From: a virus
Lineage: Duplodnaviria > Caudoviricetes
Length of the DNA stretch: 54,470 bases
Reading direction: 5' to 3' (one strand)
IMG/VR virus record: IMGVR_UViG_3300030107_005947
Span: 1-54,470 of that record
Shown: positions 4,802 through 27,379 of the stretch, one piece after another
How the letters are laid out: each line of letters begins with the position of its first letter
Position numbering within the stretch: the first letter of the stretch is position 1
Notes under the pieces: generated by a model
Told to the model about the DNA's origin: nothing
Seen by the model: only the letters and a program-made list of their open reading frames with translations
The model's database searches: none
Made by a program: the position numbers and the translations under genes

Positions 4802-5500
4802 TTACTGACGCATAAGTTCGTTAGGAACTCCGTCAGTATCTCCTACTTGAATTTTATATTGTAAATTTCTTAACTCTCGATATGAAAGTTTAGATAGTTG
4901 ATCTATCACACCATCATTTGTATCTTCAGATTTTTTGATAGGAGTTTCTTCATCAACACCAATAGTAGAATCATATTTAATTAACTCTGGTGCTTGAAGT
5001 CCACTTTCCTCTCTAAATCCTAATTGACGTAATCGAGTAGTAGCTTCTTTTTCTATTTTCTCATCAATTCCTTTTTGAAGTTCATCGAGTTGATTTTTCA
5101 AAAAAGCAATCTCATCTTCTTGAGATTTCTTATAGCCCATTCCACCCTTTTCAGCTTCTTCTTCCTCTTCTTCTTCTTCATCTTCTTTAGTATCATGACC
5201 TTCAACGTGGTCTTTCTCTAAAGTAACCTTAACGTGATCCTCATCTTTTTCCAATACTACTTCCTCTTCAGAAGTTTCTTCTTTCGCAAGATTAAGTCCT
5301 GCAAGTGCTTCGGAGACTGCTTTTGAAATCATTTCTTGGATTTCAGTGCGTTGAACTTCGGCTTCTTCCTGAGCCTTAGCTATTTCAACAGCTTCTTCCT
5401 CTTTAGCAAGTCTTTCGTCCATTTTAGAAAGGACTTCAGCAACGGCTTGTAGGGCTAAAGTTACTCCTTCATTGGAACTTTGTACATTTTCATCAGACAT
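4802..5500 (-). CDS. capsid scaffolding protein
   Basis: very acidic coiled coil directly upstream of MCP; GGAGG RBS supports MSDEN start at 5500. Confidence 0.7.
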   Translation of the reverse strand: MSDENVQSSNEGVTLALQAVAEVLSKMDERLAKEEEAVEIAKAQEEAEVQRTEIQEMISKAVSEALAGLNLAKEETSEEEVVLEKDEDHVKVTLEKDHVEGHDTKEDEEEEEEEEAEKGGMGYKKSQEDEIAFLKNQLDELQKGIDEKIEKEATTRLRQLGFREESGLQAPELIKYDSTIGVDEETPIKKSEDTNDGVIDQLSKLSYRELRNLQYKIQVGDTDGVPNELMRQ

Positions 5501-5607
5501 TTTAACCTCCAGATGATGTATGTTTTTCACATAGAAGAATGGTCTTAGCCACTTCCGTTCTTCTAAAAATAAATAAATATAAACGCTTGTATAAAAACGT
5601 CTATACT

Positions 5608-5617
5608 TATTATACTA
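5608..5617 (-). promoter_or_regulatory. late-type promoter TAGTATAATA for scaffold-capsid operon
   Basis: exact copy of a 10-mer recurring in front of genes. Confidence 0.65.
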
Positions 5618-5664
5618 AAAAGCTAAAATTTTCTATTCAAAATGTAAAAAATTATACAAAAAGG

Positions 5665-5693
5665 TTGACATATTGCGAATAATAAAGTACCTT
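5665..5693 (+). promoter_or_regulatory. sigma70-type promoter
   Basis: aaaaaggTTGACA-N17-TACCTT. Confidence 0.7.
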
Positions 5694-5772
5694 TTACTTT
5701 AATTATGTATAAAATTCTACAGGAGGTTAGACACTACAGCTAAATAAAATTACAGTAAAAGGAGTTTTAATT

Positions 5773-5886
5773 ATGTGGGATAAATGGGCAGTAATAGAAC
5801 AAGCCACAGAAAAATTAGAAGATGAGTTAGGACGTGAGCCAACCCAAGAAGAACTATTGCAAGAAATAAAAAGAAGGAGCGTATAA
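5773..5886 (+). CDS. 37-aa mini-protein resembling sigma70 region 3 (not in ORF track)
   Basis: MWDKWAVIEQATEKLEDELGREPTQEELLQEIKRRSV; AAAGGAG RBS 8 nt upstream; downstream of promoter. Confidence 0.7.
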   Translation: MWDKWAVIEQATEKLEDELGREPTQEELLQEIKRRSV

Positions 5887-5887
5887 A

Positions 5888-6091
5888 GTGCGAACAGCGA
5901 CAAGACAAGAACGGGAACATTTTAGACCAGATGAACTTGACTATGAAACAAAAGAGCTTATAATAATATCTATGTGTAATGAGTTCGAAATGACCCGAAA
6001 GCAAGTTTTACAATCTTGGAAAGATGATAAAATGCAAATGAAACGAGATTGGCATTATGTAATAGATAATTATGTACCAGATTTTTCGTAA
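5888..6091 (+). CDS. hypothetical protein
   Basis: GTG start with AAGGAG RBS; followed by terminator. Confidence 0.65.
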   Translation: MRTATRQEREHFRPDELDYETKELIIISMCNEFEMTRKQVLQSWKDDKMQMKRDWHYVIDNYVPDFS

Positions 6092-6114
6092 GGTTTCACC
6101 TCCCTTATGAGTAT

Positions 6115-6143
6115 AAAACTCCCCTGAAAATGGGGAGTTTTTT
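6115..6143 (+). terminator. intrinsic terminator
   Basis: AAAACTCCCC-loop-GGGGAGTTTT followed by T run. Confidence 0.8.
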
Positions 6144-6162
6144 ATTTCTTTTTAAAAAAAGG

Positions 6163-6191
6163 TTGACAAATATTATTTTATGTTGTACCAT
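6163..6191 (+). promoter_or_regulatory. sigma70-type promoter
   Basis: aaaaaaaggTTGACA-N17-TACCAT. Confidence 0.75.
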
Positions 6192-6227
6192 GTATTCATA
6201 TTAAATAAATTATACAAGGAGTATAAC

Positions 6228-6683
6228 ATGAGTAAGCATATGATATTAATTAGTCCAGACACAAACCGACGTGAAGAACACACACAAATTGATCTTGCCA
6301 ACGGATGGAATGCCAACGATGAATTTTTTAACAACTTCATTAAAGATGAACCAAGATACCATACCTGTACTTGCAAGAACGCTAACCACACCATAATAGA
6401 GAGAATTGAATGTGAAGAAGTACTTGTTGAAGGGTTAGAAGCATTACACCGAAAGACTGGCTTAGAAGCATCAATTTTAATTGAAGATGCTATAGCTAAG
6501 ATTAAGAGATACCTTGCACCACACCAGTTTGAGAATCGAAAGAGTGGAGATTTAAACGACTTTGATACTAGAAGACAACCAATGGGAGATATTAACCACG
6601 GGCAATGGGCAATGTTACGATTAATGGAACTTTATGTAGCTTGTGTAAACAACCCAACCTACACAGTGTGGTACAGTTGCTAG
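6228..6683 (+). CDS. hypothetical phage protein
   Basis: AAGGAG RBS before MSKHM at 6228; own promoter and terminator. Confidence 0.7.
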   Translation: MSKHMILISPDTNRREEHTQIDLANGWNANDEFFNNFIKDEPRYHTCTCKNANHTIIERIECEEVLVEGLEALHRKTGLEASILIEDAIAKIKRYLAPHQFENRKSGDLNDFDTRRQPMGDINHGQWAMLRLMELYVACVNNPTYTVWYSC

Positions 6684-6705
6684 ACATAACATAGCTAAGG
6701 TAAAT

Positions 6706-6741
6706 AAAATAACTCCTCCGAAATATGGGGAGTTATTTTTT
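6706..6741. terminator. bidirectional intrinsic terminator
   Basis: AAAATAACTCC/GGAGTTATTTT stem between convergent genes. Confidence 0.75.
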
Positions 6742-6952
6742 ATTTGTCGTCTGGAGGAGAACCCTTGGCTTCTAGAATTAATATCTCATTTCTATAATCA
6801 TACATCGGTTGTTGTACTAACTTTTTTAATTTCTCTAATTGATTGCCTTCAGGTAAACTAGCCTCAACGAGGTCTAATACTTTACCTACCATTCGGCTAT
6901 GCTTTGCAATTATATATTCTTGATTTGGTGAAACTTTATTCATATCAACCAT
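6740..6952 (-). CDS. hypothetical helical protein, paralog of 3166..3366
   Basis: shared HS.R.VG.V..L.EASL motif; GGAGG RBS. Confidence 0.7.
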   Translation of the reverse strand: MVDMNKVSPNQEYIIAKHSRMVGKVLDLVEASLPEGNQLEKLKKLVQQPMYDYRNEILILEAKGSPPDDK

Positions 6953-8886: not shown

Positions 8887-9217
8887 CTTTTAATATCGGC
8901 TCTACCAATGATACTATATCGGTAAATGGAACATTTTCGGAAGTATCTTGTTCAGTTTGTTCCTGCTCATCTCTTTTTCTTTTCTTGTTTTTCATTTCCT
9001 CAATAATATCTTCTTTTCTCATATCAGATTTTATCCAATTCATTAAATTGGCTATTGATTTAGAATTTAATTTCATCGTAGGCGTACCATCATTTAAAAA
9101 TCTTTTTAAATTATCGATACCATCTTTTCGTTTCTTTTTATATTTTCCATGGGTAGGAGTAAAAGTTCCTGAATCGGTTGAAGTAAAAACTTCTTTTTCA
9201 AAATCATTATTCATCAT
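8879..9217 (-). CDS. hypothetical protein
   Basis: ORF tiled between portal and Zn-ribbon gene with short overlaps. Confidence 0.6.
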   Translation of the reverse strand: MMNNDFEKEVFTSTDSGTFTPTHGKYKKKRKDGIDNLKRFLNDGTPTMKLNSKSIANLMNWIKSDMRKEDIIEEMKNKKRKRDEQEQTEQDTSENVPFTDIVSLVEPILKDE

Positions 9218-11045
9218 CGTCAGACTCTACTGGCTTTTCATGATGTTCAGTTGTTTTGGGAGTTTGTATTATAGGATTAAAAGTACCCTTCTCTATCATT
9301 GATATTCCCTCCGAATTTAAATACGCAATATAATCCGTGTTGTCTTGTATAAACCACATTTTAGTAAAATCTGGACTAACTTGTTTAATTAATGGGTGCG
9401 TAAAACCCTTTTCCACTAAATCATCTATGAAACTTTTTGAAGTTTGTATAATGTCACCAGATCTAGCTTCAGCATAACTATCTAAATCCCGTTCTTCATT
9501 AGGTGCTTTATCGGCACTATTTGGCGTTACTCCACCTGTTCTACCTTGGAACTTTCTTTCAGAATCTGGTTTAATATTATCTACATCAGACTGGTCTAAC
9601 TCTTTCTTCTTAGATTCTATATTTAAAGCAGCTTGTTCTGCTACAAGTTTTGCTGTTTCAACAGGTTCTCCAGTAACAACAAATTCCGCTTCAGTTACGT
9701 CAGCATTTTGTTCCTTTAATCTGACATTAAAACCAAGTTTAGCGAACTGCGATGCTATATTAATTTTTTGCATGGCAAATGCTAGTTTGGTATTTTCAGC
9801 TTTTTCTTCAGGTTGCGGTAAAACAATATCAAAATCTGTAATAGCTAAACACTCTAGCAAGTGTGGAAAAACAGCTTCCATAAATAATCGTTGATCAGAT
9901 TCAACAACCCTACTCATAACTGTTAATTGTTGCGTCTGACTTGATAAACCACCAAATGCCTCTGGTGCACCTTGCCAAGCAGGGCTAACTCCCCATATGG
10001 CTGCAACTCTTTCACGAATTTCTTGCCTAACTGGTAAATAATCCATTTCTTGTAAGGTATGGAATAATCTTACTAAATCAACTCTACCACGCTGATTTCT
10101 AGAAGAAACAGCAATCATAGGAACATAGTTGGGGTCGGCTCGTGTTTGTGCCACTATATGTTCTCGTTCTCTACGCAATGATTCAGGATCATCAGTGGTT
10201 ACCATCAACATACTTGCAGGCATTCTTCTTTGATAGAAATAATTAAATAAGTTTCTATCCATTCCTACTAAAGTCATGGCTTTTTCAAAAATAGTTAGAA
10301 CAGGAGACCAACCATAAGTTTCAGAAGGTGAAAATTTACTTAAATGAATAACTTCCGAGTCTAATAAAAATATATCTTTTGTTCTATGACGCATTTTAAA
10401 CATTGCAGGCACGCATTTTAATTCGCAGTTAGTGTCTAAGCACGCACCAGCCTCGGATCGCACTTCCTCGCGATGGATAGGACAAATAAAGTGAAGATTC
10501 TTAGGTAATCCATTCTCATCAAGATCAAATTCAATAACAGATGGATTAATTCTTCTTATTTCTAATAATCTTGAGGATACTTTCCCATTTCCTAAATCTT
10601 TATATTGTTTAGATATATGCAAAAAGCCATCATCGAGGGAAATAACGTCATGATGAAATTGACGTAATACTTCCTCTAAAGATTGACCAAAAACATTACA
10701 ACTGGCTCTTATATCCTCTAATTTTTGTTTTTGTATAGGATCAGGATTTTCTACTGTTGCTTGAAAATCTAATCCTCTCCTAAAAACTTCGGAAGTTATG
10801 TGGTTTAGTGGTCCACGTATTTCTTCTACAGTCATAACAATAGTTTGAACATCTCGGATTAATTGATTTCGATGTGTTATGTTGTTTCTAACCATTGGGT
10901 TAACAACACCATCAATACCTAAGGTAGGAGTACCACCCGTTTCTCCAGCTGCTTTTAATAAGTCCAACTGATTTATTTTTCTATTAACTTCAGTTAGCTT
11001 TTCATTTAAAAACGGGAGTTGTGGTACATACTCGCTTAATTTCAT
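9207..11045 (-). CDS. portal protein
   Basis: 612 aa; EVIHLSKFSPSETYGWSPV, FYQRRMPASML, IRERVAAIWGVSP portal patterns; Cys/His insertion CPIH..C..C. Confidence 0.85.
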   Translation of the reverse strand: MKLSEYVPQLPFLNEKLTEVNRKINQLDLLKAAGETGGTPTLGIDGVVNPMVRNNITHRNQLIRDVQTIVMTVEEIRGPLNHITSEVFRRGLDFQATVENPDPIQKQKLEDIRASCNVFGQSLEEVLRQFHHDVISLDDGFLHISKQYKDLGNGKVSSRLLEIRRINPSVIEFDLDENGLPKNLHFICPIHREEVRSEAGACLDTNCELKCVPAMFKMRHRTKDIFLLDSEVIHLSKFSPSETYGWSPVLTIFEKAMTLVGMDRNLFNYFYQRRMPASMLMVTTDDPESLRREREHIVAQTRADPNYVPMIAVSSRNQRGRVDLVRLFHTLQEMDYLPVRQEIRERVAAIWGVSPAWQGAPEAFGGLSSQTQQLTVMSRVVESDQRLFMEAVFPHLLECLAITDFDIVLPQPEEKAENTKLAFAMQKINIASQFAKLGFNVRLKEQNADVTEAEFVVTGEPVETAKLVAEQAALNIESKKKELDQSDVDNIKPDSERKFQGRTGGVTPNSADKAPNEERDLDSYAEARSGDIIQTSKSFIDDLVEKGFTHPLIKQVSPDFTKMWFIQDNTDYIAYLNSEGISMIEKGTFNPIIQTPKTTEHHEKPVESDDDE

Positions 11046-11563: not shown

Positions 11564-13438
11564 TTACGCAACTAAACAAGCTGACCAACCACAGGATTTA
11601 CAAGTCTGGCATCCAGCTTCCTCAATAATGATAGGAGATTCGCAACAGGGTTTAATTGTAGATTCTTCTGAACCTTTTACTAACACTTCTTTATCCCTGC
11701 TCCCTGCCCTATAGACAGTGATTCCTTTACAACCAGTGTGATAAGCTAATAAATAAGCATCTTTAACTTCTTGCATGGATGCCTCATTAGGCATATTAAT
11801 TGTTTTACTAACACCGCTATCAATATGCTGTTGAAAAACTGATTGCATTAATACATGATCTTTTGCAGAAATGTCTGGAGAAGTAGTGTAAACTTCTTTT
11901 ACCCAGTCGGGCATTTTAAATTTTGCATCTTGTAAAGAACCACCCTCTGCTAAATAGTTCATAAGTTCTTCAGAATAAAAATCATATTTTTTAGCATCAG
12001 ATTCAAAATATTTATTGATGTAGTTTAAAGTTTTACCTTCAAGAATATTTTGTTTTTTCCATGCTAAAGCAAATGTAGGTTCGATGCCACTTGAAGTGTC
12101 AGCTATCATGGATATTGTTCCTGTTGGAGCAACTGTTAATCTACAATGATTTCTAAAACGTTCGTTTTCTTTGTCATAAGTACTATCATTAAAAGCTGGA
12201 AATACTCCTCGTATTTTTGCTAACTCTATAGATTCCTTATCAGCTTCAGAACGTATTTCTTGCATTACTTGATCGGCAACTTGTCTAGCCAATTCTGAAT
12301 TATAAGGAATACGCAACTGAATTAATAGATCAGCAAATCCCATAATACCTAAACCTATTTTTCGAGTTGCCTTTGTCATTTCCTCTATTTCTGGAGTAGC
12401 GTACTTATTAGCATCAATGACATTATCTAAAAATCTAGTGGCTATTCGAACTACCTCTTTTAACCTATTCCAATTTATCTGGGCGTGCCATCTATTAGGA
12501 ACATCTTTAAATTCCCCATCATAAGGAATAAAAAACTGTGATAAATTTATAGACCCTAGGTTACAACTTTCATTAGGCAATAAAGGTTGCTCGCCACATG
12601 GGTTGGTTGCAATCATATTGCCATATTTTTCTATTACATGGTTATCTTTATTTATTGTATCAAGAAATACCATACCAGGCTCACCATTAGTCCAAGCACC
12701 CATAATAATTCTGTCAAGAACTTCTTGAGCATTTAGCTGACCTGCAACAGTATTATCTTTAGGATTAATTAGCTTATAAGGCAAACCTTTGATTGCTGCT
12801 TCCATAAAATTAGAATCTACTCCTACAGAAATATTAAAGTTGTGAATATCTCCTTCAATAGATTTACAATTAATAAATTCAAGAATATCTGGGTGGTATA
12901 CTGACATAACTGCCATGTTCGCACCATCTCGTTTTCCCCCTTGAGTAATCATGGAACTTACCCTACTTAAAGTTTTCAAAACTTCTATAGGACCACAAGC
13001 AATACCATGGGTACTTTTAATATCATCTCCTCGTGGTCGTAATTTAGACAAGGCAAATCCAGTACCTCCACCAAACTTTTGTACCATAGCACTATCGGTA
13101 GACGCTTTCATTATTTCTTGCATGGAATCTTCTAATGGTAGAACAAAACACGCTGACAGCGTACCTTGGTCAGTTCCTGCGTTCATTAAAGTTGGACTAT
13201 TAGGTATGAATTCCAGATTTTTCATAATTGTATAGAAGTCCATAGCGATTAAATTTTTCTCGACTGATAACGTATAATAGGAATCTTCTATACTGGCTAT
13301 AGCTTTCGCAACTCGTTGAAACATTGCAGTAACATCTTCAATTACTTCGTTATGGGAATTTTTTAAATAGTATCGATGGTTTAAAATAACCTCTGCTTGT
13401 TCGGATACTTTTGCATTAGTATCAATAACGGTTGCCAT
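11564..13438 (-). CDS. nrdJ: class II (adenosylcobalamin-dependent) ribonucleotide reductase
   Basis: [51 protein letters not shown]-terminal Cys cluster; no nrdB gene in window. Confidence 0.93.
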
Positions 13439-13453: not shown

Positions 13454-15070
13454 TTAGTTGGTATTTCTATGTCCACAATATAAGCACAAACCTCTCTCAG
13501 GAATCCAGAAATTAGAATTACACACTATTTCAGTACAATTAGGATTTGGTGCACCTTTAGGTGTTTCTGGTTCATTAACAGGCTTTAGTTTACTTTCCAA
13601 ATCTAGTTTCTGAGAGTCTTGTCCGTCTGCTAGCCATTCCGTTACTGATCCCATACTACTAAAGCTATATCTATTTTGATCATGCAAAGCTAAAGCTGCT
13701 AAAGCAACTGAGAAAAAAGCATCTCCATGTCCTGTAACGGTATCAGGTGCTTTTAAATCATTAGTTACTGCTAACATAGATTCAGTTTGCATCGAGTCAT
13801 CAATTAATTTAAATCTGCCTGAATGAACAAGTTGTTCTAAGGCTGATGCCATTTGATTTTTTGATTTAGAAGTAAAATTTAGTGGTCTCCAACGATTATC
13901 TAAACCTCTATCTTCTAATTCACCTCTGGTATTATCTAAATATCCTGATGTGATATCGAAATTTTCAGCAGCTTCATTTAAATACTCTATTTGGTCAGAA
14001 TACGACCAGCCTCTTAAAAAAGATTGGTGTATTTGCTCTATAGTATCTCCTCGTTTTCTAAACAAAACGAGATGAGAGGGATGCCGTCTTTTACCGACAT
14101 CAAACCCTGCATATATTTCTTCGTCATTATACTCTTGATGATATCTTTTTTCTACTGCAAAAGAACGTAAATTAACATTTATACATTTTTCAATATCTTC
14201 CCTACTAAAGAAACTTTCCGTTGCCGAGTGTGGTGTTAATAAAAACTCAGAAGCGAAAGATTTTGGTCTTGCCCTTTGTTGATCTAATAACCATTCCTCA
14301 CTATACAATTCAGGCATCAAAACTCTTCTCCCAGGTAAGGGATCTAAGGCAGGCAATATCCTGCATTTAAAACGATCATCGTCCTGCAATTTAGCTATCA
14401 AATCATTAGGCGACATAGGAGTACCGAGTACAATTACTGGAGTACCCTTTAAAGGAATAAATAATGATTCAGTCATAAAATGATCTTCAGCTTTTTCTAA
14501 CTGAGAATGATTAAGGGGATTTTCTGGATCACGCAATAGGTCATCAGCAATAAGTCCCCCGTTAACGTGTAATCCTCTTTTAAAACTAAATAGTCCTCCG
14601 TGCATAACTTCGGTAGGTTTATTGTTTATTAAATATCTGCCAGTATATTCAGCTTGTGAGTTTCTTTTTTTAATCAATTCTTTTAGAATAGGATTTCGCA
14701 TAATAGCTTTATTTATTTCTTGAACATGGTATCTAGCCATTGTGTCTGAATATGATAAATATAAAATAGAACAATCCCTTTTAGAAGTTAACATTCTCCA
14801 AGCAGAAAAACCATGTCCTAATATTGTTGATTTAAAATGGAATCTAGGCAAAACTGCCATATAATGTTTTCCAGTTTCTAAACATTCTTGAATATCATCA
14901 GCTAGTATACCGACGTGCCATGCTTTAAAATATTCTGGATTATCGTAACTATAGCACCAAATATTTCGTAAAAATTCTTTAAATGTTCCCACTTCATATT
15001 TATTCTGTTCCACTAAGGCATCAGAAATCATACTAAAAGCAGCTTCAATAGATACTAAATCTTTACTCAT
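13454..15070 (-). CDS. terL: terminase large subunit
   Basis: PRFHFKST Walker A variant, LIADD Walker B, VLGTP, GFDVG nuclease Asp, HGDAFFS; C-terminal Cys cluster. Confidence 0.9.
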   Translation of the reverse strand: MSKDLVSIEAAFSMISDALVEQNKYEVGTFKEFLRNIWCYSYDNPEYFKAWHVGILADDIQECLETGKHYMAVLPRFHFKSTILGHGFSAWRMLTSKRDCSILYLSYSDTMARYHVQEINKAIMRNPILKELIKKRNSQAEYTGRYLINNKPTEVMHGGLFSFKRGLHVNGGLIADDLLRDPENPLNHSQLEKAEDHFMTESLFIPLKGTPVIVLGTPMSPNDLIAKLQDDDRFKCRILPALDPLPGRRVLMPELYSEEWLLDQQRARPKSFASEFLLTPHSATESFFSREDIEKCINVNLRSFAVEKRYHQEYNDEEIYAGFDVGKRRHPSHLVLFRKRGDTIEQIHQSFLRGWSYSDQIEYLNEAAENFDITSGYLDNTRGELEDRGLDNRWRPLNFTSKSKNQMASALEQLVHSGRFKLIDDSMQTESMLAVTNDLKAPDTVTGHGDAFFSVALAALALHDQNRYSFSSMGSVTEWLADGQDSQKLDLESKLKPVNEPETPKGAPNPNCTEIVCNSNFWIPERGLCLYCGHRNTN

Positions 15071-26845: not shown

Positions 26846-27379
26846 TTACTCATTTAACTCAAAAGCAATATCAGAAAATTTATCTCTGAGTGTTTGTCGA
26901 ACGTTGTAAGCATTTTCTCCTAAATCTTCGGTTATTTCTTGCATTGTTAAACCTTCAATTTTTAACTGTATAAATTGTTTTTCTAAAGATGTTAATCCTT
27001 TGGAATTAATAAAATTGTTTAATTCAACGTCAGCTAAAACCTCACTATCTTCTTTTAAGGCACTATTTAATTCTGTAGGCATCGTATTAAAATCATCAAA
27101 AGTAAAATCCAGACTTTTTGTAAATACTTTTCGTTCTGATTTGCTAACTAGTGTTCTAATAGTGTTTACCATAGAGGTATGTAGATATGTGTGGAATAAT
27201 GTACCTTTTGTTTCATCGAACGATTTTGCTGCTTTTACAATACAAATCCTTAATTCTTGTGCTAAATCTTCTTTCTCCATGTCGGCAATATACTGATTTT
27301 GTCGGTACATATTTGAAATCATTCGTTGTATCTTTGGCTCCCATTGTAGTATTAAATCATTATCTATTAACATCGGCAA
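26846..27379 (-). CDS. phage RNA polymerase sigma factor (regions 2 and 4 only)
   Basis: EDLAQELRICIVKAAKSFDETKGTLFHTY region 2; LTSLEKQFIQLKIEGLTMQEITEDLG region 4 HTH. Confidence 0.85.
   Translation of the reverse strand: MPMLIDNDLILQWEPKIQRMISNMYRQNQYIADMEKEDLAQELRICIVKAAKSFDETKGTLFHTYLHTSMVNTIRTLVSKSERKVFTKSLDFTFDDFNTMPTELNSALKEDSEVLADVELNNFINSKGLTSLEKQFIQLKIEGLTMQEITEDLGENAYNVRQTLRDKFSDIAFELNE

Follow-up and report, generated by a model that had tools for sequence, protein, structure and literature searches.

A 37-residue marine phage protein resembling the start of sigma factor domain 3 is the product of a conserved, mobile accessory gene

A viral metagenome record of 54,470 bp (71% complete by estimate, 33.7% G+C; hereafter the window, that is, the whole stretch of DNA analysed) contains an open reading frame of only 37 codons whose product carries an LGREPT motif reminiscent of sigma factors. 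The locus raises the question of whether a phage encodes a free-standing piece of a sigma factor and, if it does not, what the peptide is. The original prediction described the ORF as an unannotated gene for a stand-alone sigma region 3, with a strong ribosome-binding site and a promoter of its own, and pointed to a phage sigma factor, encoded elsewhere, that lacks this region. Two roles were offered: the product could be a decoy, either displacing host sigma or titrating an anti-sigma factor, or a trans-acting part of a split sigma factor. The reading frame, the quoted peptide, the Shine-Dalgarno site and the promoter were all recovered as described (Table 1). We refer to the ORF as the mini-gene and to its product as the mini-protein.

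Table 1. Positions of the mini-gene, its signals and related elements (window coordinates unless a contig is named)
Feature	Position	Strand	Remarks
Moron island, 1.2 kb	5531-6739	+	between two - strand head genes, scaffold (4802..5530) and a 70-aa ORF (6740..6952)
Early-type promoter, AAAGG + TTGACA-N17-TACCTT	5660..5693	+	-35 at 5665-5670, -10 at 5688-5693
Second Shine-Dalgarno-like site, AGGAGG	5721..5726	+	in the mini-gene leader
Shine-Dalgarno site, AAAGGAG	5757-5763	+	9 nt 5′ of the mini-gene ATG; counterpart in 5 of 5 distinct copies
Mini-gene, 37 aa	5773..5886	+	predicted helix 4-19, GREPT turn 20-24, helix 25-36; pI 4.6
GAAGGAG, Shine-Dalgarno site of the 67-aa ORF	5873..5879	+	within the final Arg-Arg-Ser codons of the mini-gene
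Embedded Shine-Dalgarno stretch	window 5873-5890; L093 4630-4645; L095 710-725; L092 320-334		three contexts
67-aa ORF, GTG start	5888..6091	+	no known family; homologues without the mini-gene in L004-L008
Intrinsic terminator, strong	6115..6151	+	also given as 6115-6141; closes the two-gene unit
AAAGGTTGACA, six copies	5660, 6158, 47632, 53562, 53933, 54378	+	motif scan, at most 1 mismatch
AAAGGTTGACA, one copy	53546	-	motif scan, at most 1 mismatch
Phage ECF-type sigma gene, regions 2 and 4	26846..27379	-	outside the mini-gene unit

A word-indexed search of 5.8 billion proteins for relatives of the mini-protein gave 97 candidates, among which 19 clusters matched at E ≤ 1 (a first search had given four). 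All 19 are 37–47 residues long, and 16 of them have exactly 37 residues. Of 23 candidates for longer, fused forms none scored, which is weak evidence. Besides the window, DNA copies of the gene were found in a complete 63.7-kb relative with terminal repeats (G001), in three short contigs from metagenomes (L092, L094 and L095), and in L003. Each of the five distinct copies has a Shine-Dalgarno site 7–9 nt upstream of the ATG. Nei-Gojobori dN/dS ratios of the window copy were 0.25 with G001, 0.29 with L095, 0.27 with L092 and 0.55 with L003. When all ten pairs were considered, seven, these four among them, fell between 0.25 and 0.55, and three between 0.78 and 1.05; two of the latter (0.78–0.89) involve L003, the most divergent copy, and the third (1.05) comes from only six changes. 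Over 11 aligned sequences twelve residues are invariant (M1, D3, E9, Q10, E13, L15, E16, L19, R21, P23, T24 and E27); tryptophans 2 and 5 are not conserved across the family.

Since homologues keep the length, the Shine-Dalgarno site and the reading frame, the ORF is a real, conserved gene and not a chance one. Its very small size, the fragmentary match to either of the domain models considered below and its position in a hypervariable island might still suggest that it arose by chance or is what is left of a sigma or homing-endonuclease gene in decay. Against this stand the fixed length in 16 of 19 clusters, the Shine-Dalgarno site in 5 of 5 copies, the intact frame in four different genomic contexts and dN/dS below 1 in most pairs; the conservation largely refutes such a reading, which we regard as extremely improbable.

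The mini-gene had already been called and labelled sigma-like by automatic pipelines, and its description as unannotated therefore does not hold everywhere. An identical protein is present on three contigs of the protein collection, where Pfam family PF04539 (Sigma70_r3) is precomputed; the same family is precomputed on 3 of 5 and on 4 of 19 listed clusters, and one relative was named 'RNA polymerase specialized sigma subunit' by JGI. The INPHARED phage collection contained no DNA match to positions 5400–6800 and no protein match to the capsid, PHROGs had no family for the mini-protein, and PADLOC gave no match. No literature on the family, or on any free region 3-like phage peptide, was found among open-access papers and bioRxiv preprints.

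The promoter of the mini-gene belongs to a class with several members in the window. Exact matches to TTGACA-N15-18-TACCWT number four, that of the mini-gene being one of them, versus 0.17 expected, and none of 100 shuffled sequences had four. The motif AAAGGTTGACA was found seven times at no more than one mismatch versus 1.66 expected, a count reached in none of 100 shuffles. Promoters of the class have the form AAAGGTTGACA-N17-TA(C/T)(C/A/G)(A/T)T, with TACCAT as a frequent −10 element. Elsewhere they precede the next ORF (6158) and occur in the + strand small-gene region at 47.6–54.4 kb. The class marks the small-gene (early) regions of the window. A generic consensus promoter scan did not list the site at 5665, because its −10 hexamer has only three of the six consensus bases. 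Given that the class is shared with the small-gene region, the mini-gene unit looks early and would be transcribed by the host polymerase from a sigma-70-like promoter.

A 67-aa ORF begins 1 nt past the mini-gene stop codon and is followed by a strong terminator, and from this arrangement of signals the two genes appear to be co-transcribed as one unit. A variant of the leader was seen in DNA of another marine sample (run X2, one contig), which is about 91% identical to the window over 5632–6214 and does not have the 37 nt at 5733–5769. The joint of 5732 to 5770 brings AGGAGG to 9 nt before the ATG, so that one Shine-Dalgarno site is exchanged for another with unchanged spacing. This contig also carries 21 additional nt behind 6094, close to the terminator. 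From two metatranscriptome runs there are contigs over 5408–5560 and 6377–6584; both segments lie outside the mini-gene and have no bearing on its expression.

The surroundings of the gene were compared among relatives of the phage. Among viral contigs 267 relatives of the capsid gene were found, and the loci of the best 80 of these were inspected. The mini-gene was present in 1 of the 80. In 51 loci the two genes that flank the island in the window, the scaffold gene and the 70-aa head-completion neighbour, were both placed in order; 11 loci with negative gaps, produced by weak matches elsewhere, and the remainder, which had no counterpart of one flanking gene, were left out. In 34 of these 51 loci nothing is inserted, and 154–247 bp separate the flanking genes. 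The gap measures 631–806 bp in ten, an overestimate since the scaffold match is partial there, and 1.2–4.3 kb in seven.

In the window the island consists of two units on the strand opposite to the flanking genes, each with a promoter and a terminator: the mini-gene with the 67-aa ORF, and an ORF of about 151 aa. The latter is listed as a 167-aa ORF (6180–6683), the start of which falls inside the −10 region of its own promoter; ATG 6228, behind AAGGAG (6216–6221), is the likely start. No family was found for its product in Pfam, PHROGs, NCBIfam or PADLOC. In L004–L008 the island carries a homologue of the 67-aa ORF and other small ORFs, and the mini-gene is absent. The closest capsid relative, L003, has a homologue of the mini-gene (41 aa, 47% identity) and no 67-aa ORF. 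An obligate pair of mini-gene and 67-aa ORF was considered and rejected, as each is found without the other in relatives. A search for related loci with the 67-aa protein as query returned no relative.

Two further neighbourhoods were found. In G001 and L095 the mini-gene is part of a tight operon of small + strand genes and precedes a 216-aa ORF; in L092 and L094 it lies between a cysteine-rich and a hydrophobic ORF, each of 54 aa. With the window and L003 this makes four settings, and none of the neighbours of the other copies adjoins the mini-gene in the window. DNA similarity among the copies extends from about 15 nt before the ATG to just past the stop codon, from which it follows that the gene moves as a compact cassette. 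The mini-gene is thus accessory and mobile, and its unit has the properties of a moron: a promoter and terminator of its own, insertion between conserved genes, and presence in only some relatives.

The similar DNA includes AGAAGGAG, the Arg-Arg-Ser codons at the 3′ end of the gene, which are kept in the window, G001 and L095 and take the form AGAAGGGA in L092, in spite of different downstream genes. The conserved 3′ end is a ribosome-binding site as well, and part of the conservation may therefore act at the nucleotide level. On this ground the peptide could be of little import and the ORF chiefly a leader that passes ribosomes to the next gene by translational coupling; in L092 and L094, as in the window, a single nucleotide separates the stop codon from the following start, and in G001 and L095 the two overlap. 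Several observations argue otherwise. Synonymous changes per site exceed non-synonymous ones in the diverged pairs, and the 12 invariant residues are central and not confined to the 3′ end. In L003, moreover, no gene stands between the homologue and a terminator-like hairpin, and nothing is thus coupled to it. We therefore consider it improbable that the ORF is chiefly a leader. Conservation of the embedded Shine-Dalgarno site does suggest a secondary role as translational coupler for the downstream gene, which, in view of the peptide-level constraint and of the L003 copy without a downstream gene, would not be the whole story.

What, then, does the peptide resemble? The search against Sigma70_r3 that the original prediction had proposed as a check did return a match, with E 1.5e-5 and 25.4 bits against a cut-off of 25.3, but this match spans only positions 2–26 of the 78 in the profile and in six-frame mode falls below the cut-off, to 22 bits. 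The six-frame profile search found no further match to region 3 in the window. At E ≤ 1 the Sigma70_r3 profile picks up 10 of the 11 family members (best 8.4e-7). The NCBIfam model FliA_WhiG matched with E 0.0025 over model positions 81–110, which is the position of domain 3. When the family profile was run against the PDB, the Aquifex FliA chain 1rp3 was the sole one below E 0.001 (E 7.2e-5, 23.8 bits for the domain); of the 55 chains listed at E ≤ 10, 40 are sigma factors aligned at the same place. Thirteen of 27 residues are identical between the mini-protein and residues 99–125 of Aquifex FliA.

AlphaFold2, supplied with the 11-sequence family alignment, predicts two helices joined by the GREPT turn (mean pLDDT 83.7). 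The top Foldseek rows for this model are domain 3 of FliA and SigA at rmsd 0.4–1.1 Å, that with FliA being 0.4 Å over 30 residues, although no row reached E ≤ 0.001 and the fit is not significant by E-value. The nearest ESM Atlas clusters, small proteins (67 and 44 aa) labelled 'Sigma-70 region 3 domain-containing', have a score of 0.84 that is below the meaningful level.

Taken as sequence similarity, the resemblance to the start of sigma region 3 appears real. The mini-protein shares with domain 3 of group 3 sigma factors such as FliA/WhiG (regions 3.0–3.1, PF04539) an amphipathic helix, the LGRxPT turn and an acidic second helix. It is, however, too short for a sigma domain 3: it corresponds roughly to the domain's first third, with two helices over 37 residues where the complete domain has three over some 78 positions, and is without the third helix, region 3.2 and the flanking regions 2 and 4. 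Nor does it lie between regions 2 and 4 of a longer protein, being a free product, with its own start and stop, of a phage accessory island.

A second resemblance became apparent in a phmmer search of 1.84 billion representatives. At E ≤ 0.001 the mini-protein had 24 hits, two of which are mini-proteins and 22 are long proteins of 257–987 aa with 3–7 matched stretches each. There was no sigma factor among these 22, and all of them (10 of 10 and 12 of 12) carry the homing-endonuclease-associated repeat HNH_repeat (PF18780) above its cut-off; they are the only long proteins with database-wide significance for the mini-protein. Sigma70_r3 cross-matched nine of the 22 at E ≤ 0.01 (best 3.3e-9), and this model therefore responds to helix-LGRxPT-helix wherever it is present. 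Judged by these matches, sigma region 3 is not the only domain with the LGRxPT motif. The original prediction had taken it for a hallmark of that region; Pfam, NCBIfam, the PDB match to FliA and Foldseek do point there, but the HNH repeat shares the motif equally. As the nearest relatives that are significant database-wide are HNH-repeat proteins, the sigma-like reading of the motif may be wrong.

The phmmer ranking needs to be read with care. It favours repeat proteins because the scores of their units add up, and single-copy sigma matches cannot reach significance in a library of 1.84 billion. Scored with the family profile, no single repeat unit exceeded 20.3 bits (117 units, median 4.2), versus 23.8 for FliA domain 3. 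Unit for unit, FliA-type sigma domain 3 thus appears at least as close to the mini-protein as the HNH repeat.

The mini-protein might accordingly be a free half-unit of the PF18780 repeat, whether descended from it or mimicking it, that acts on the DNA or protein partners of repeat-bearing nucleases or restriction-like enzymes. All 11 family members match HNH_repeat at E ≤ 1 (best member 8.1e-4), and the alignments with repeat proteins begin at residue 2 of the mini-protein, many units having the same W-x-x-W start. The window protein, however, scores 15.9 bits (E 0.016) against a 26-bit cut-off, the tryptophans of that start vary within its family, and no repeat protein besides the mini-gene product itself was found in the five phage records searched. 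The architecture differs too. PF18780 proteins have 3–8 units of about 60 aa (roughly 55–65) in tandem, and in a model of one of them (P0019, pLDDT 91.4) the units are made up of four helices; the mini-protein amounts to one half-unit, and its second helix is predicted to have 12 residues compared with six in the repeat. A wide VIA-align search with the P0019 model gave residues 616–668 of SauUSI as the best row (Z 7.6, rmsd 1.5 Å over 53 residues), which counts in favour of this reading, and TetR-type helix-turn-helix domains at Z 4–4.7; sigma domain 3 was absent among the best 50 rows listed, and Foldseek returned no row at E ≤ 0.001 for this model. Taking both sides together, we think the half-unit reading rather unlikely. 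In several of the HNH-repeat proteins P0006–P0029 a shared helical domain is conserved at the C-terminus and a nuclease domain is absent. In open-access papers and bioRxiv, PF18780 was found in one paper, solely as an entry in a table of repeat families whose structures are not known.

From these comparisons we conclude that the mini-protein probably represents the N-terminal hairpin of a helix-turn-helix-like module. It fits neither family as a member, since the third helix and the sigma context are absent on one side, and on the other it stays below the repeat threshold and is not tandem.

Whether the hairpin could serve as a missing part of the phage sigma factor was examined separately. 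As had been stated, this factor has recognisable regions 2 and 4 only: Pfam finds region 2 (E 9.7e-9), the sequence passes the sigma70-ECF model TIGR02937 (45.7 versus 42.9 bits, positions 7–155 of 165), and it aligns end to end, across regions 2 and 4, with a sigma-H chain of 164 aa (3mzy). Its ORF is listed from TTG 27379 (177 aa); alignment with five homologues makes ATG 27373 the probable start (175 aa). Regions 2 and 4 without region 3 are the normal architecture of ECF-type sigma factors. Nothing is therefore 'missing' from the phage sigma, which is of ordinary ECF type, and the mini-protein does not supply a region that it needs.

Nor do the two genes travel together. The phage sigma gene is present in all five related large records (three of three that are at least 90% complete) and the mini-gene in one of the five (one of the three); counting the window, the figures are 6/6 versus 2/6. 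They lie on opposite strands, separated by 21 kb. Prediction of a complex from the alignments of the phage sigma and the mini-protein gave a score of 0.01, the mark being 0.32, and counts neither way.

Split sigma factors are known in phages and mobile elements (bioRxiv 10.64898/2026.10.01.756105), and the mini-gene resembles them in that a phage or mobile element encodes a small part-sigma-like protein. The pairs named in the accessible part of that preprint (B. subtilis SigO-RsoA, Tn916 Sig7-Sig8, T4 gp55/gp33 and SPO1 gp33/gp34) divide regions 2 and 4, both parts being needed together, and a separate region 3 occurs in none of them. In our case, by contrast, the phage sigma already contains region 2 as well as region 4, and the mini-gene is unlinked to it and dispensable across relatives. 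The normal ECF architecture, the uneven occurrence, the absence of linkage and the lack of a separate region 3 among the named pairs together make a split sigma unlikely, and the mini-protein is unlikely to be a subunit of the phage sigma.

There remains the broader proposal of a stand-alone sigma region 3 that acts in trans or as a decoy. In its favour are the best matches in curated libraries, all of which are to sigma domain 3, the superposition of the hairpin on FliA and SigA, and a promoter class that suggests early expression. Against it, the match covers only the beginning of the domain, and repeat proteins that are not sigma factors carry the motif too. We judge the proposal to have a low probability. 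A narrower form of it, in which the hairpin mimics helices 1 and 2 of a host sigma domain 3 and docks on core RNA polymerase or captures an anti-sigma-type partner, is in our view likewise a long shot. If true, it would define a new, unusually small class of phage early transcription modulator that can be synthesized as a peptide.

We consider it fairly probable that the mini-gene is a genuine accessory gene of an early moron unit and that its product, an acidic two-helix hairpin of 37 residues, binds a protein of the host. The mini-gene would be the first gene of a two-gene moron unit read from a host-type (sigma-70-like) early promoter, the unit sitting between the genes for scaffold and head completion, on the strand opposite to theirs. 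As a cassette it behaves as self-contained, bringing its own Shine-Dalgarno site and providing in its last codons such a site for whatever gene follows, and it occurs in differing small-gene clusters of related marine phages. In sequence the protein matches the first helix, the LGRxPT turn and the second helix of sigma domain 3, the FliA/WhiG type being nearest. In the hairpin a hydrophobic face (W5, I8, L15 and L19 with L28, L29 and I32) that is covered by the third helix in the parent fold would be exposed. By analogy with other small early phage proteins, this face may bind a host protein. A sigma or RNA polymerase surface would be a reasonable, if speculative, candidate target, one among others.

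The analogy is with small early phage proteins that bind host RNA polymerase or sigma, such as T4 AsiA and T7 Gp2. Like them, the mini-protein is small and acidic and is encoded behind an early promoter in an accessory position. Unlike it, these proteins have 60–90 residues, folds of their own and experimentally known targets, and no sequence relation is claimed. The mini-protein can be placed among the small accessory early proteins of phages, a broad class, and its likeness to sigma domain 3 is partial.

If the hairpin does bind a component of host transcription, it would be among the smallest natural ligands of sigma or RNA polymerase, and a test with a synthetic peptide would be easy. The mini-proteins also make up a well-defined micro-protein family of marine phages, and the mini-gene is an example of a cassette with ribosome-binding sites both for itself and for the gene downstream. 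For annotation the case calls for caution: Sigma70_r3 cross-matches the LGRxPT of HNH-associated repeats, and a 37-aa protein has already been named a sigma subunit.

One other feature of the window was noted. A gene for the large subunit of ribonucleotide reductase (11564–13438, − strand; phrog_84, E 3.7e-139) sits between the portal gene (9207..11045) and the large terminase gene (13454..15070), an unusual place for nucleotide metabolism.
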